A DNA stretch of 64,000 nt, from positions 64,001-128,000 of IMG/VR virus record IMGVR_UViG_3300042258_000341. One strand, written 5' to 3'. A model generated the notes under the pieces. It was not told the origin of the DNA, searched no databases, and saw nothing but the letters and a program-made list of their open reading frames with translations. The position numbers and the translations under genes are program-made. The DNA is from a virus. Taxonomy: Duplodnaviria; Caudoviricetes. Below, piece after piece: positions 9,232 to 14,653 of the stretch. Every line of letters begins with the position of its first letter. Positions within the stretch are counted from its first letter, which is position 1.

Positions 9232-9506
9232 TCCCTGAATTCGGAAAACAAAAAGTCTATGCTGGGGAAAAAGGCTCACATTGTAATGTCTTCGATATCG
9301 CAAATGCAACAGAAGAAGGCATCGCTGAAAAAGAAGCAAATGCTAGATTGATTGCAGAAGCCCCTGAAATGTTTAGACAAATAATAGCTCTTACTGAGTA
9401 TCTGGAAGAAGAAAAAATGACGGACTGTGATGCTTACAGAGAAGCTATGTATCTTATTTATCGGGTAAACAATCGACAATGGAAAGAAGAAAGTAATGAT
9501 TCTTGA
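9198..9506 (+). CDS. Conserved phage hypothetical protein
   Basis: T.GKW...EANARLIA.APEM motif common in phage proteins. Confidence 0.75.
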   Translation: MSKFTQGKWQIIPEFGKQKVYAGEKGSHCNVFDIANATEEGIAEKEANARLIAEAPEMFRQIIALTEYLEEEKMTDCDAYREAMYLIYRVNNRQWKEESNDS

Positions 9507-10614
9507 AATTCAAAAATACTTAAGAACCCCCGGAAACACAGTCGAATCTCTTTGTGAACAATACAAGCTGAAAACAGCCCGACACAAAGTATATCCTAAT
9601 CTGGTGCAGTTTAAATATTGGATTGATTCCCCCATGTCCGAAACCATTTGTAGGGAAGCAAGGGGTTTGATTCTTGATGAAGAAAATGATTGGAAAGTAA
9701 TTTGCTTCACTTTCAAGAAATTCTTCAATTTCGAAGAAGGACATGCCGATAAATTAACTCCGGGGGATATTTCTTGTTACGACAAAGTAGATGGGAGTTT
9801 AATTCAGATGTATCACTACGCTGGGGATTGGCATGTTGCAACGACTGGCTTGCCGGATGCGTCTGGGGGATACAATAAGGACATCCCGGATAAAACTTTT
9901 GCTGATTTGTTTTGGAAAACATGGAGCGAATTAAATTACAAATACCCGGAAGAAAAAGAAGTGTGTTTTGCTTTCGAACTTGTAACAGAATACAACCGGA
10001 TTATTTGTAAATACGACAAACCCCGAATTGTTCTTCTTGGGGGCAGAGATTTGTTAACGCTCGAAGAATATCTGCCTGAAAAAATAAGTAAAAAATACAA
10101 CTGGGAAGTTGTGAAAAAATACCCGATGAATACTCTTGAAGAAATTGTTTCCGCAGCAAAAGAAATAAATCCGATGGAAAGAGAAGGTTTTGTTCTTGTG
10201 GGTGGGTTTACCTCTGATGATCTTTGTAACCACTTGAGAGTAAAAGTAAAAAACCCCGCTTATGTAGCTCTCCATCATCTTAAAGACGGAATGAGTAACA
10301 AAAGGCTTTTGCAGATATTGCAGAACAACGAATCCGAAGAGTTTCTTTCTTATTTCCCGGAATTTACGGAGCAATACTTAGGATTGAAAAAGAAGTTTTT
10401 GAAAATAGTAAAAGAAGCGGAAGATGTGTATATGCAGTATTCTGATTGTGAAACAGCAAAAGAATTTGCATTGCATGTGGCGAAACTTCCATATTCCGGG
10501 ATTCTTTTCGGAATGAGAAACGGGAAAATATCTTCGATAAAAGAAGGTTTCCGGGAGATACGTGTAGAAGCTCTTATGAAAATGCTGGGAGTTGAAAATG
10601 AGCCTTTATCTTAA
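9496..10614 (+). CDS. RNA ligase, T4 Rnl1-like
   Basis: EARGLI, F.KFFN, adenylation motif KVDGS, FELV, EGFVL, RVKVK..Y..LH. Confidence 0.88.
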   Translation: MILEIQKYLRTPGNTVESLCEQYKLKTARHKVYPNLVQFKYWIDSPMSETICREARGLILDEENDWKVICFTFKKFFNFEEGHADKLTPGDISCYDKVDGSLIQMYHYAGDWHVATTGLPDASGGYNKDIPDKTFADLFWKTWSELNYKYPEEKEVCFAFELVTEYNRIICKYDKPRIVLLGGRDLLTLEEYLPEKISKKYNWEVVKKYPMNTLEEIVSAAKEINPMEREGFVLVGGFTSDDLCNHLRVKVKNPAYVALHHLKDGMSNKRLLQILQNNESEEFLSYFPEFTEQYLGLKKKFLKIVKEAEDVYMQYSDCETAKEFALHVAKLPYSGILFGMRNGKISSIKEGFREIRVEALMKMLGVENEPLS

Positions 10615-10737: not shown

Positions 10738-11298
10738 ATGATCGTAAAATATTCTTCCCTTGAAATAGATGTTCCGGCTTTCTACAAGAAACACGGAATT
10801 GACCCGGAGAATCTTTCTTTTCTTGGAAAAGGATATTACGGGTCAGCATATTCTACCGGGGATGGAAGAGTTGTAAAGATAACTACTTCCAAATCCGAAT
10901 TTGAAATTGCCCAACAATTAATAGAAACCCCGAAAGAAAATATTGTAAAAATCTTCGATGCTGTCTTTGCTTCTGAAAGTCCTTTGAATTACAGGTATAT
11001 TATTTTGAAAGAGGAATTGGAACAAAACGAAGAAGATGAATATCTTTTCTACGAAGTTCAAGAAATGTTAGATACTCAGGGAGTCCCCCTTACTTACATA
11101 AGTCATTTCGATATGGAAGAATTCGAAGATTTAAACGGGGAAATAGGGGATAAATTAGCAAGTTTCTTTCAAGAGATTTCAGAGGTGGTTTGGGATGCTA
11201 CTCATCTTGTGGGAGATCGAGCGGATATCTCAGCAGATAATCTTGGAAGAGATAGGAATGGAACTCTTAAATTGTTAGATGTGGATGTGAAAAAATGA
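10738..11298 (+). CDS. Minimal Ser/Thr protein kinase-like protein
   Basis: LGKGYYGSAY glycine loop, VVKI lysine, E, NIVKI, DISADNL catalytic loop, LLD. Confidence 0.8.
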   Translation: MIVKYSSLEIDVPAFYKKHGIDPENLSFLGKGYYGSAYSTGDGRVVKITTSKSEFEIAQQLIETPKENIVKIFDAVFASESPLNYRYIILKEELEQNEEDEYLFYEVQEMLDTQGVPLTYISHFDMEEFEDLNGEIGDKLASFFQEISEVVWDATHLVGDRADISADNLGRDRNGTLKLLDVDVKK

Positions 11299-11733
11299 TA
11301 AAAAGATATTCGGAGTTGAACACCCAACTTCTTTATCACGGAAGGCATCAAGAAACTCCTTACGGGGGGGAATGGGATTTATCTTACCCCGGATAAAGAA
11401 TATGCAAAAAGATATGCTGGGGATCAGGACATTTATGTTTTTAAATTAAATGTTCCCGAAGATAAAATTTTCTCTTTCAGCCGGAAAACAGATGTGGAGA
11501 AAATAAAACCATATTTCCCGAAAGGACATTGGCAAGCTCTTCTTGGAAATGTAAATGACGGGGAAATGGACTGGGCAGGAGCTGGGGATTTAGCTAATTC
11601 CGAATTCGAGGAAACAGATGATTTCTTGAAGCATCTTGGATATGCTGGAATGTATTTAACAGAAAGAACAGGAATCAAATCTATTTACCTGTTCGATGAG
11701 AAAGACGCAACTCTGATCCGGCGGGAAAAATAA
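11295..11733 (+). pseudogene. ADP-ribosyltransferase-fold protein frameshifted at a G7 tract
   Basis: LYHG in frame from ATG 11295; GIYLTPDKEYAKRYA continues in the frame of ORF 11494-11733; removing one G at 11364-11370 joins them. Confidence 0.7.
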
Positions 11734-11739
11734 TTCTTC

Positions 11740-11768
11740 TTGACATCTTTTAATTTTTACCTTAACCT
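11740..11768 (+). promoter_or_regulatory. Sigma70-type promoter for leader/tRNA-Tyr unit
   Basis: TTGACA-17-TAACCT. Confidence 0.65.
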
Positions 11769-11786
11769 TGAAATTAAGGTGAAAAT

Positions 11787-11900
11787 ATGAATTCTCACAC
11801 GAACAAACTGAATCTCCTTACTTTATCGCTGTTATGCGGCGATCAGTTTGTCGTGTCAAGTTTGTATTATTACCTCGGGAGCGATTCGCTAACACTGTAA
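11787..11900 (+). CDS. Putative attenuator leader peptide (37 aa, Tyr-Tyr-Tyr)
   Basis: TAAGGTG RBS; MNSHTNKLNLLTLSLLCGDQFVVSSLYYYLGSDSLTL; TAT TAT TAC at 11865-11873. Confidence 0.65.
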   Translation: MNSHTNKLNLLTLSLLCGDQFVVSSLYYYLGSDSLTL

Positions 11901-11967
11901 TTTTTTCGTAACAAACACGATAAACTGAACAGGTAGCGAAGCCTTATGGCAACATCGCTCCTTTTTT
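11797..11967 (+). promoter_or_regulatory. Putative transcription attenuator (alternative helices plus U-tract terminator)
   Basis: 11843-11856 pairs with either 11797-11811 or 11915-11928; 11934-11940 pairs with either 11885-11891 or 11955-11959; T6 at 11962-11967. Confidence 0.65.
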
Positions 11968-12001
11968 GCATTTCCGGAACTTTAAATTTTTATGATATAA
12001 T

Positions 12002-12084
12002 GGACAGGTGGCTGAGTGGTTGAAAGCGGCGGGTTGTAGCCCCGTTCTGTAAAAAGCTCGCAGGTTCGAATCCTGCCCTGCCCA
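12002..12084 (+). tRNA. tRNA-Tyr(GTA), no encoded CCA
   Basis: Acceptor GGACAGG/CCTGCCC-A, anticodon arm GCGGG-TTGTAGC-CCCGT, long variable arm, GGTTCGAATCC T arm. Confidence 0.9.
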
Positions 12085-12108
12085 CTGAAATAAAAGGAGT
12101 TTTGAGAA

Positions 12109-12630
12109 ATGTCTGAAATGTTATTTTGTAAAAGTTGTGGAAACCCTCGAAATTTAGGCAGACGATTATGTGATCCATGTAATTCAAAAAGAATTCAAAA
12201 ATACCCCAGATATATTTGGCAAAATACTTGTGTGGCATGTAAGTCCTCTTTTTCTTCAATTCGAAAAGCAACTTTACTCTGTAAAGAGTGTCTAAATTTA
12301 AAAAAGAAATTGTCTATTGTTTCAACAACAACATATGTTTTTACCAAAACTGGAACCTTATTGCATCGAGAAATTGCGGAAAAGAACTTAAAGCGTTCTT
12401 TAAGTTCTGATGAAGTTGTTCATCATTTAGACCATAACCCTCAAAACAATCTCTCTTCAAATTTAATTGTATTGTCTCGAAAAAAGCATAGTGAACTACA
12501 TCAATATTTAAATTTGCAAAAAGTGATTTGGTTAAAAAAAGAAGGGGAAAATTTAGAAGGACAGCAATTACTTTTGGAGTCTTTTAATTGGTTGCAAAAA
12601 ACAGAAGCAACGTATTCAAAGCTTGAGTAA
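12109..12630 (+). CDS. HNH homing endonuclease
   Basis: LHREIAE..VVHHLDHNPQNN..SNL..H..LH with N-terminal CxxC pairs. Confidence 0.88.
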   Translation: MSEMLFCKSCGNPRNLGRRLCDPCNSKRIQKYPRYIWQNTCVACKSSFSSIRKATLLCKECLNLKKKLSIVSTTTYVFTKTGTLLHREIAEKNLKRSLSSDEVVHHLDHNPQNNLSSNLIVLSRKKHSELHQYLNLQKVIWLKKEGENLEGQQLLLESFNWLQKTEATYSKLE

Positions 12631-12724
12631 ATAAGGTTCAAGTCCGGGTAGTAGCATTCTTTAAAATAATTACGTCTTATTTTCTTCCTTTATGTAGTAA
12701 ATAAAAATAAAGGGAAGAAAATAA

Positions 12725-14653
12725 ATGTCAGTAAATCTTTCAAGTTTTACAAAAACATTAAGTAAAAACACAACCAGTTATAATATTGTAGAATTTGCTG
12801 AGAGAAAGAGTTGTCTGGGTATCAATTTATTCCCCCAACAGAAATATCTTCTTAAGCTTTTCGATAAAGTCCCCTTGGATGACAAAGAAAGAAACATTCA
12901 AGTAAAAGATCGTTTCGGGGAACACGTCTTACATACTTTTACTGAAATCGAATTCCACGATTTTCTGTATAAAGAGGGGAGAGTTTCTTTAGATTATGAC
13001 ACATACATGGACACCCCTATTACGAGTATTCTTCTCTCTTGTGGTCGTGGTGCTACAAAAACAACAACAATATCTATATACACAGCATACAAGCTTTACG
13101 AAATCCTTTCCCATTATTGCCCACAAGATTATTTTAATATTTTAACTCATGATGCGATAGACCTTTCGGTTGTGGCTCTTGGTGAAGCAAACGCCCTTGA
13201 AATTTTTTCAAGATTGACAACTTTAATTCATAACGCTCCTTTTTTTAAACCCCATATTTTAGAAGATCCTTTACAAGGCGAACTAAGGGTGTGGACACAA
13301 GCAGACCTTGATAAAATTCAAGGATATATTGCAAACCCCCCGGCACATTCCAATTCTATTAAATTATCAGCAAAACCTTGTTCCCCAAGTCTTCGTGGTG
13401 CAAATAGGGCGTTAACAATTCTTGAAGAATTTGCTTTTTTCAACAACTCCCCTAATTCCAGTAGAGCATTACCTTTGGACGAACAAATATATCGAGCAGT
13501 AACCCCTTCTGTCGCTAGGTTTAAATATCCAAACGGAGATCCTTTCGGAAAAGTCCTTATGATTTCTTCGCCTTCCGGAGAATCTGGGAAATTTTACGAA
13601 GAATATCAAAATGCTTTCGAGCATGGGCAGAAATCCGCTTTGTTAGCCCTTTCCACCCCTACGTGGTTCTTGAACCCCAGCCTTTCGAAGGTTTTCTATA
13701 TGTCAGAATACACAAAGAATCCACAGGCTTACAACAGTGAATTCGGAGCAGAATTTCAAAGTTACGAAAATCGTTGGTTGGTGGATGATAGTCCTATTTA
13801 CAGAGCTTTCGATACTTCTCTGGATCACACAAAAGTTTTCGGGGATTTCCAGAAAGTTTATTACATGGGTTTAGATGCTGGTTTCAGTGAAGACGGTTTC
13901 GGGATAGCGATTTCTCATTATGAAAGTGAGTATGTTGAATTTCCAGAAACTCTTATGAAAGAAGTACATGCTTATTATCCTGATTTTATAAAAGAAATAG
14001 AGAAGAACGATGGGCGATTTATTTCTCCAAAATACATTGTAGATTATTACGAAGTCTTTTATCCCGGAGTTTATCCTTATGAAGAATACAATGTTCTTCC
14101 TGTAGAAGGTGAAAACGGGGTCATTGAAAAGATTGTAAATTGTGCCAAAAGGTATCCTATTCGAAAAGGATTTTTAGATCAATTCTCAGGAGTCGTTTTG
14201 CAGGAACTTCTTCTTCGAAGAGGATTGAAGAACATTGAAATGATCAATGTAAATGCTGCAATAAATAACGATGTTCACAAAGTATTCAATATGCTTTTAC
14301 ATCAATTCGGAATCAAGATGGGTTTTAATGCTGAATTTTTGAAGGAACTAAAAGCTTTGAAAGCGAAGACAATCGGAAATGGGTTTTTACGGGTTGAGCA
14401 CCCCCCGGGAGGGCATGACGACATGTATAGTGCTTTGGCTAGGAGTTTATACCTTTGTTGGCTTTATACAACCAAGAACAAGGGTTTACTCTCAAATCTG
14501 GGAATTGTATTTAAAGACTCCAGAAATACAAACACGGCTCTTTCTGCAGCCCGAGGTCAGAAAGTATTTGAGAACATCAAGAATAGAATGCATAGTAATC
14601 AGAACTCGATTCGCAACCCAAGCAATATGTTCCCGAATAAAATAACCCGGTAA
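12725..14653 (+). CDS. terL: Terminase large subunit
   Basis: PQQ motif, Walker A GRGATKT, Walker B ILEEF, ISSP, nuclease GLD..FSED and GGHDD. Confidence 0.9.
   Translation: MSVNLSSFTKTLSKNTTSYNIVEFAERKSCLGINLFPQQKYLLKLFDKVPLDDKERNIQVKDRFGEHVLHTFTEIEFHDFLYKEGRVSLDYDTYMDTPITSILLSCGRGATKTTTISIYTAYKLYEILSHYCPQDYFNILTHDAIDLSVVALGEANALEIFSRLTTLIHNAPFFKPHILEDPLQGELRVWTQADLDKIQGYIANPPAHSNSIKLSAKPCSPSLRGANRALTILEEFAFFNNSPNSSRALPLDEQIYRAVTPSVARFKYPNGDPFGKVLMISSPSGESGKFYEEYQNAFEHGQKSALLALSTPTWFLNPSLSKVFYMSEYTKNPQAYNSEFGAEFQSYENRWLVDDSPIYRAFDTSLDHTKVFGDFQKVYYMGLDAGFSEDGFGIAISHYESEYVEFPETLMKEVHAYYPDFIKEIEKNDGRFISPKYIVDYYEVFYPGVYPYEEYNVLPVEGENGVIEKIVNCAKRYPIRKGFLDQFSGVVLQELLLRRGLKNIEMINVNAAINNDVHKVFNMLLHQFGIKMGFNAEFLKELKALKAKTIGNGFLRVEHPPGGHDDMYSALARSLYLCWLYTTKNKGLLSNLGIVFKDSRNTNTALSAARGQKVFENIKNRMHSNQNSIRNPSNMFPNKITR

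Follow-up and report, generated by a model that had tools for sequence, protein, structure and literature searches.

The subject of this analysis is a short leader preceding a tRNA gene in the genome of a virus assigned to the Caudoviricetes. The window studied, a 64,000-nucleotide stretch, corresponds to bases 64001-128000 of IMG/VR record IMGVR_UViG_3300042258_000341, which is 196,978 bp long, has a G+C content of 36% and an estimated completeness of 82%. The leader consists of a promoter-like site, a 37-codon open reading frame (ORF) with a run of three tyrosine codons (YYY) and a set of mutually exclusive RNA helices ending at a T6 tract, beyond which lies a tRNA-Tyr(GTA) gene. Based on the sequence, on thermodynamic modelling and, decisively, on a homologous leader in a second, unrelated phage lineage, we favour with moderate confidence the interpretation that this is a ribosome-mediated transcription attenuator of the trp/his type, gating read-through into the phage tRNA-Tyr gene, such that these phages probably make the tRNA mainly when ribosomes are short of tyrosine tRNA.

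The leader and its predicted RNA fold

An initial annotation of the locus had listed a promoter, a ribosome binding site, a 37-codon ORF whose tyrosines are confined to one run, a T6 tract and, 34 nt further on, tRNA-Tyr(GTA); each of these was found in the position it had been given, and all are on the plus strand. The promoter-like site (11740-11768) comprises TTGACA (11740-45) and TAACCT (11763-68) separated by a 17-nt spacer, and is among only eight sites in the genome that match TTGACA-N16-18-TAnnnT. Transcription would start near 11774-76, placing the Shine-Dalgarno (SD) sequence AAGGTG (11776-11781) at the 5' end of the putative transcript. The ORF (11787-11900; MNSHTNKLNLLTLSLLCGDQFVVSSLYYYLGSDSLTL) terminates with a TAA codon and contains Tyr codons only as TAT TAT TAC (11865-11873), a run that would occur by chance in a random 36-codon ORF with a probability of approximately 0.006. 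The T6 tract (11962-11967) is separated from the tRNA-Tyr gene (12002-12085), which has the anticodon loop TTGTAGC and no encoded CCA, by a 34-nt spacer in which no usable promoter is evident. The locus thus harbours a short promoter-proximal ORF with an SD sequence and start codon, a run of cognate codons, and exclusive helices followed by a U-run, as is characteristic of attenuators.

RNA transcribed from the locus is predicted to be tightly folded. Positions 11775-12001 reach -68.6 kcal/mol (z = -6.2 against dinucleotide shuffles), compared with -60.1 kcal/mol for the minus strand, with pair probabilities near 1 in the main helices, and the 190-nt element is the most stable of the 2070 tiles of 190 nt, on either strand, in the 197-kb genome (GC-corrected z of -4.45). 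The largest helix is P1, a 99-nt hairpin (11777-11875, plus strand; -36.5 kcal/mol) composed of three stems: a lower stem, overlooked in the initial annotation, in which the SD sequence and AUG (11777-93) are paired with 11859-75, including the three Tyr codons; a middle stem of 11797-811 with 11843-56; and a top stem of 11826-32 with 11836-42. It is followed by P2, a branched domain (11877-11962) closed by GGGAGCGAU/AUCGCUCCU directly against the U6 run.

The switch itself would be formed by two AGCGA and two UCGCU elements located 5' of U6, all within approximately 190 nt of promoter-proximal RNA. Segment 1 (GGGAGCGAT, 11877-11885) pairs with segment 4 (ATCGCTCC) to form the terminator predicted when no ribosome is present; segment 2 (TCGCTA, 11886-11891) pairs with segment 3 (TAGCGA, 11934-11939) as the core of the antiterminator; and segment 3 can alternatively pair with segment 4 as a 3:4 terminator, segment 4 and T6 (11954-11967) together constituting the terminator 3' arm and U-run. 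The complementarities proposed initially are all present, namely TTCGCTA (11885-91) with TAGCGAA (11934-40), GGAGCGAT (11878-85) with ATCGCTCC (11954-61) and AGCGA (11935-39) with TCGCT (11955-59). The 2:3 helix is extended apically by 11893-11933, and the terminator encloses a GCC/GGC hairpin (11941-11950). In isolation the 3:4 hairpin has a predicted stability of around -11 kcal/mol, compared with around -31 kcal/mol for the full P2 domain.

No known RNA family accounts for this structure: Rfam matches were limited to tRNAs, both across the whole window at gathering thresholds and around the locus at E values up to 10, with neither a leader family nor a T-box being found. The leader is present once in its own genome, blastn-short detecting no second copy there and a covariance model (R1) recovering the one copy; the same model found none in a 224-kb relative (G001).

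A homologous leader in a second phage lineage

An exhaustive phmmer search with the leader peptide identified a 37-aa homologue (67% identity, E 6e-6), the 90% cluster of which has a second member. Together with an 8.6-kb contig, L147, that was reached via a neighbouring gene, these define clade B (L144, L145/L146 and L147). In clade B, an A-rich tract is followed by a promoter, TTGACA-16-TGgTAAAAT, with 11 matches out of 12, then by AGGTGA, a 37-codon ORF with YYY, the blocks GGGAGCGATTCGCTA, GGTAGCGAAGCCTTAT and ATCGCTCCTTTTTTGC and, approximately 110 nt further on, tRNA-Tyr(GTA) and additional tRNA genes. This promoter is the sole sigma-70-like site on the plus strand 5' of the tRNA array; that of the window is weaker but occupies the homologous position. 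The array of L147 comprises two tRNA-Tyr genes, a gene for a 340-aa HNH protein and five tRNA-Leu genes, and that of L144 a tRNA-Tyr gene and five tRNA-Leu genes, separated by two tRNA-like elements that went uncalled. The uncalled elements (L144:640-830), recognised by neither ARAGORN nor Rfam, possess acceptor and T arms and GUA anticodon loops, with odd D regions.

The two lineages have little else in common. None of the proteins of L147, which carries a tail-fibre-like gene, matches the window's genome, and the only DNA shared by the two is one tRNA-Leu gene and the leader (11773-11991), which aligns with 74% identity over 229 nt (E 8e-29). This similarity extends to 11991, as the 24 nt following T6 (GCRTTTCCGRRACTT..TTTTT; 11968-11991) are conserved as L147:6211-6234; in the window they include the palindrome TTCCGGAA. 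The HNH proteins of the window and L147 are barely related, and the tRNA-Tyr genes of the two lineages are far more diverged than the leaders, to the extent of not being detected by blastn, yet in both cases tRNA-Tyr is the next gene after the leader. As leader and tRNA-Tyr are shared in the absence of any common protein, and the tRNAs themselves are diverged, the leader has either kept its place ahead of tRNA-Tyr or arrived there anew, in two phages that are otherwise unrelated.

Further searches did not extend this distribution. The window's locus had no blastn match among INPHARED phages, in which L144 matched single tRNAs only, and scans of IMG/VR and JGI metagenomes with patterns for the anticodon arm, the switch segments and a codon-degenerate YYYLGSDSL returned only the window's own lineage. 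The leader is unchanged on the near-identical contigs L015-L021, which come from sister samples, and microdiversity is therefore uninformative.

Comparison of the two lineages provides evidence that the ORF is translated into a selected peptide. Its start, length and stop position are the same in both (with TAA replaced by TAG in clade B) despite 26% nucleotide divergence, and its frame is the only one open in all copies; AGGTGA, at the SD position, is invariant in all four distinct copies. Of 21 codon differences, 9 are synonymous, among them AGT to TCT at Ser25 (leader at L144:246-356) and four Leu codon switches, and 12 are non-synonymous. When the 28 nucleotide differences were redistributed randomly over codons 2-28, 15.8 amino acid changes were expected, compared with the 11 observed (P=0.007). 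The three tyrosines are invariant, although the first codon varies between TAT and TAC both between and within lineages, a change that breaks a P1 pair but keeps the Tyr.

Similarly, the RNA fold is maintained. RNAalifold, applied to the four distinct sequences, recovered the same two-domain fold with 66 pairs, and the L144 leader alone folds at -67.1 kcal/mol (z = -5.8). The helix covariation that the initial annotation had recommended looking for was found, alongside the coding selection, as compensatory double changes at seven pairs, five of them in P1 and two in the apical part of P2. Segments 1-4 and T6 are invariant in all copies, and a 31-nt stretch running from codon 26 into codon 35 differs at a single synonymous site; the remainder of the ORF differs by approximately 30%, the apical extension of the 2:3 helix has diverged in sequence, with indels, while retaining its pairing, and the clade B version of the GCC/GGC hairpin has a 5-nt loop. 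Constraint on the switch sequences and on their spacing from YYY would be expected to leave such a pattern. Lack of conservation of YYY and of the helices in homologous loci had been named at the outset as the outcome that would count against attenuation; the comparison was made, and the attenuator interpretation passed it, YYY, ORF length, stop, the four switch segments and T6 all being conserved, again 5' of tRNA-Tyr.

One further element of the initial proposal fared less well. A second switch had been suggested in which 11843-56 pairs either with 11797-811, as in P1, or with 11915-28, a near-copy of 11797-811 lying within the apical extension of the 2:3 helix. Both pairings are indeed available in the window, each of 14 bp, but in a hand alignment with clade B the pairing of 11843-56 with 11915-28 acquires a C×A mismatch and a bulge that are uncompensated, whereas changes in the rival P1 pairing are compensated, and the second switch was therefore excluded from the mechanism.

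Ribosome stalling and competing explanations

The effect of a translating ribosome was modelled thermodynamically, by refolding the RNA left free on its 3' side for several positions of its leading edge, which was placed approximately 12 nt 3' of the A-site codon's first base in keeping with the established geometry of the ribosome footprint. In the unmasked RNA, P1 and the full P2 form. When the RNA is free from 11878, the 1:4 pairing closes the terminator; when free from 11881, the closing stem is cut to 5 bp and ends 3 nt before the U-run; when free from 11884-11886, 2:3 forms, leaving segment 4 unpaired and no terminator; and when free from 11888 or later, the 3:4 terminator forms, at around -11 kcal/mol. 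Identical thresholds were obtained for L144, L145 and L147. The full antiterminator is thus predicted only for leading edges at approximately 11883-85, corresponding to a stall at the third Tyr codon, with a stall at the second weakening the terminator by shortening its closing stem. The claim that a ribosome stalled at YYY permits read-through is consequently reproduced by the model for the third Tyr codon, and in part for the second, but not for the first, at which the terminator is predicted to be kept.

These results suggest the following mechanism. In the absence of a ribosome, P1 would lock the SD sequence and the nested 2:3 and 1:4 pairings would make up a terminator adjoining the U-run. 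On arriving at the UAA stop codon (11898), a ribosome would cover segment 2, allowing 3:4 to form and transcription to stop. By contrast, a ribosome held with the third Tyr codon in its A site would cover only segment 1, such that segment 2 captures segment 3, segment 4 stays unpaired and RNA polymerase continues into tRNA-Tyr; with the ribosome held at the second Tyr codon, only the shortened closing stem would be left. The upper part of P1 (11797-11856) may serve as a pause hairpin for as long as the SD remains free, the loading ribosome melting it and so coupling translation to transcription, and if no ribosome loads, the lower stem of P1 would lock the SD against later initiation. The outcome would be homeostatic, more decodable tRNA-Tyr leading to less stalling and hence to less transcription of tRNA-Tyr. 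The module may move between phages as leader plus tRNA-Tyr, often beside a homing endonuclease gene.

A number of observations weigh against this interpretation. The window's -10 sequence, TAACCT, is weak, matching TATAAT at three of six positions and being absent from the list produced by a consensus promoter scan, and the phage's intergenic DNA shows no more than mild enrichment of TTGACA. A perfect extended -10 (TGATATAAT, 11993-12001) abuts tRNA-Tyr and is unexplained; a transcript initiated from it would start within the tRNA, and it may be the promoter of the HNH gene downstream or a junction remnant. The predicted antitermination window is narrow, at approximately 6 nt of leading edge, although it is comparable to that of trp, in which stalling is effective at codons 10-12 alone; termination is predicted to persist for a ribosome held at the first Tyr codon; and sequestration of the SD and AUG by P1 means that translation would need a kinetic window. 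As the switch segments are invariant, covariation is neutral on 1:4, 2:3 and 3:4, and uninformative as to which of these helices form. Only two lineages are known, so the linkage of leader and tRNA-Tyr may represent a single inherited event. Finally, the conservation of amino acids beyond YYY suggests that the peptide may have a role of its own.

The last point is the starting point of a rival explanation, in which the locus is a gene for a small protein, equipped with a terminator of its own, and the 37-aa micro-protein is the functional product, whether membrane-active, anti-host or similar to a type I toxin; the hairpins would then control translation and end the transcript, and expression of the tRNA would depend on constitutive leak-through or on a promoter that escaped recognition. 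Purifying selection on amino acids outside YYY, the conservation of all ten Leu positions, and the enclosure of the SD and AUG in a long helix, a feature of small toxin mRNAs under tight repression, together with a weak anti-SD (CCUUA, 11817-21) that pairs with the SD early in transcription, are all consistent with such a gene. However, the peptide has no clean transmembrane segment, its Leu-rich sequence being broken by polar and charged residues (G-D-Q or S-S-R-Q mid-stretch), and matches no family; the only other phmmer match, to a 2151-aa protein in three stretches with 28% identity, was taken to be spurious. Among the other features of type I toxin loci, a minus-strand TTGACA (11859-54) lacks a good -10, and the sole Rfam antitoxin match (SIB_RNA, 14 bits) is at chance level. 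A small-protein gene would also fail to account for two AGCGA and two UCGCU elements at ribosome-edge distance from YYY and the stop, unchanged over 31 nt, or for the recurrent location between the only strong promoter and tRNA-Tyr, and we consider it unlikely. A comparably small probability attaches to the converse proposal, that the locus encodes a stable, structured non-coding RNA of approximately 190 nt, acting either as a small RNA or as an RNase III site and insulating terminator bordering a mobile tRNA/HNH cassette, with the ORF and YYY as by-products of helix pairing to the A-rich SD region. The very well-defined fold, which uses nearly every nucleotide from the putative start to T6, the P1 duplex, which at around 30 nearly continuous base pairs would suit RNase III, the fact that TATTATTACC is the complement of GGTGAAAATA and the failure of gene callers to report the ORF on near-identical contigs of the window's lineage could all be explained in this way. 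It is contradicted by the preservation of ORF length, start and stop over 26% nucleotide divergence, by a bias towards synonymous substitutions that includes AGT to TCT, by the opening of no frame but the leader's in all copies and by a TAT to TAC change that sacrifices a P1 pair for an unaltered Tyr; nor does the RNA match any Rfam family.

A T-box riboswitch, which senses tRNA directly, would equally connect tRNA-Tyr to a choice of terminator, with P1 as Stem I carrying the UAC specifier used by the classical tyrS T-box, and P2 reading the 3' end of the tRNA. The layout of a long 5' stem followed by a terminator/antiterminator pair conforms to this arrangement, but RF00230 did not match at E values up to 10, no T-box sequence or UGGU bulge is available to pair with ACCA (the only UGG being in AUGGCA), the Tyr codons are base-paired rather than placed in a specifier loop and the coding signal of the ORF would go unexplained, making this origin very improbable. 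A function at the level of DNA, as a pac/cos site or origin of replication, was rejected, given that the region is missing from syntenic relatives and that the plus strand folds better than the minus strand.

The attenuator could in addition serve as an on-demand counter-defence, in which the leader senses decodable tRNA-Tyr and switches on the phage tRNA-Tyr after attack by a host nuclease; we hold this only as a tentative extension, at a rather low probability. A nuclease such as Septu/PtuAB would destroy tRNA-Tyr, ribosomes would stall at YYY, a phage tRNA-Tyr with an atypical anticodon loop would be produced, and the switch would return to its off state once decoding recovered; the unit of leader and tRNA might spread among unrelated phages with the help of neighbouring homing endonucleases. 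The composition of the peptide may be relevant here: in both lineages 19 of the 37 residues are Leu (10), Ser (6) or Tyr (3), a bias (P = 2e-5 against the proteome) that is unaccounted for by the geometry of P2. These are the amino acids of the tRNAs with long variable arms. The Leu positions are encoded in clade B with all six Leu codons, and the tRNAs of the clade B arrays are those for Tyr and Leu. A link to long-variable-arm tRNAs is suggestive, and the leader would perhaps, in this form of the counter-defence proposal, read all of them.

Genomic setting and relation to known systems

The leader lies in a block of plus-strand genes. Located 1.2 kb upstream is an RNA ligase gene of the T4 Rnl1 family (9496-10614), which fits a tRNA-defence setting; in T4, this family mends nuclease-cut tRNA. 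It is followed by a gene for a 186-aa protein and by a 145/149-aa gene (11295-11733), frameshifted in the window's copy by a G7 run (11364-11370) that is shared with L015, L017 and L018. L016 and L019 have a G6 run and an intact gene of 145 aa, homologues elsewhere being 149 aa, and either the length of the run is polymorphic among samples or the difference is an assembly error. Downstream of tRNA-Tyr is an HNH_3 homing-endonuclease gene (12109-12630), the 3' member of the leader/tRNA-Tyr cassette, and then a 642-aa gene (12725-14653), the product of which had no match in our Pfam scan and only PF27249 (MJ0330_N) in precomputed Pfam annotation, but is read as a large terminase subunit from a Walker-A-like motif.

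Relatives in IMG/VR were sought using the terminase, the HNH protein and the 186-aa protein, and the one found does not have the cassette: L002, the sole relative by terminase (60% aa identity), has a terminase gene with no tRNA or HNH gene upstream. L003, L004 and L005 carry homologues of the gene 5' of the leader (67-69% identity), with the terminase gene directly next, or after an unrelated 73-aa ORF, and no tRNA. Since these syntenic relatives lack leader, tRNA-Tyr and HNH gene alike, the approximately 1 kb from 11734 to ~12700 is a lineage-specific inserted cassette.

Other features of the tRNA and endonuclease genes in this genome and its relatives are of interest in their own right. In the window's tRNA-Tyr, A3 and C70 are mismatched and the anticodon loop, UUGUAGC (U32, G37, C38), is atypical, the clade B genes having the usual CUGUAAA; the D-arm exactly matches that of tRNA-Ser genes in bacteria of many phyla, and scanning bacterial genomes with the D-arm pattern revealed only such tRNA-Ser-like genes, with no similarity to the leader and no indication of the host. 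The closest homologue of the HNH protein (48% identity; L014:1085-1774) coincides in part with a group I intron (Rfam Intron_gpI, 54 bits), and among the genes downstream on its contig is one with DCD and intein matches; no Intron_gpI match was found in positions 11000-13000 of the window. Just 3' of the HNH stop codon is a T-arm-like motif (GGTTCAAGTCC, 12635-12645) that may be a tRNA remnant at the 3' edge of the cassette. Elsewhere in the window, adjoining a Gln/Leu/Gly tRNA cluster on the minus strand, a 109-nt element (29426-29534) that scores 41 bits with the Rfam tRNA model but is not called by ARAGORN may be a tRNA with an insert in its anticodon region. The tRNA cluster of the 224-kb relative likewise contains a 124-nt match to the tRNA model, together with a sub-threshold match (L006:2004-2118) to the Y RNA-like YrlA family (37 bits, against a gathering score of 69).

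Genes for tRNA in phages are usually seen in terms of codon usage, or as constitutive spares against tRNA-cleaving defences. PtuAB/Septu is known to target tRNA-Tyr, and two reports describe phage tRNA-Tyr itself in the latter role, that of T5 countering the retron-Eco7 PtuAB nuclease (PMC11555353) and that of T6, together with the homing endonuclease SegB, countering Septu (PMC13096335); in these cases the dose of tRNA-Tyr was raised by a strong promoter or by gene amplification (PMC11555353, PMC13096335), and tRNA genes were found to co-localise with those of homing endonucleases (PMC13096335). The present loci are similar in that a phage tRNA-Tyr gene adjoins a homing endonuclease gene and, in clade B, has a strong promoter upstream, but the endonucleases here are HNH_3 proteins, and the parts of the T5 and T6 reports considered mention no codon-sensing control (PMC11555353, PMC13096335). 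In a full-text literature search, attenuation of tRNA genes was not found described; for a codon-sensing leader before a tRNA gene, the present case offers conservation across lineages, coding selection and compensatory changes. If the interpretation is correct, such a phage gauges the decoding capacity of its host in real time and responds by supplying the corresponding tRNA, and the element, being self-contained and approximately 230 nt long, could serve as a sensor of tRNA-Tyr integrity.

The closest parallels are the attenuators of amino acid operons, such as trpL, hisL, pheL, leuL and thrL, with which the leader shares a short promoter-proximal ORF containing a run of cognate codons, four segments able to form exclusive terminator and antiterminator structures, a U-tract preceding the gene to be regulated, a stop codon so positioned that a finishing ribosome would block segment 2 and a narrow predicted stall window, as in trp (for the logic of trp and pheL attenuation as compared here, see PMC3082878). 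It departs from them in its phage setting and in several aspects of its construction: the untranslated state is predicted to consist of nested 1:4 and 2:3 pairings in place of 1:2 and 3:4; the SD is paired to the regulatory codons within a predicted hairpin of 99 nt; and the ORF is longer, at 37 codons, encodes a conserved amino acid sequence and belongs to a leader matching no Rfam family. It also differs in that the regulated product would be a tRNA instead of a biosynthetic enzyme. With the T-box of the tyrS type the leader has in common that the state of tRNA-Tyr would set the choice between terminator and antiterminator, but a T-box binds the tRNA directly, without translation, and its defining motifs are absent here. 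In the regulated function, the nearest system is the pheM leader of the pheST operon, which attenuates an aminoacyl-tRNA synthetase gene and hence, like the leader described here, would sense the supply of charged tRNA to control a component of translation, not the synthesis of an amino acid. If confirmed, the attenuator would extend this classical logic from amino acid supply to tRNA supply: whereas the target of pheM is a gene for a synthetase protein, here it would be the tRNA itself, closing a direct feedback loop on a translation component within infected cells.

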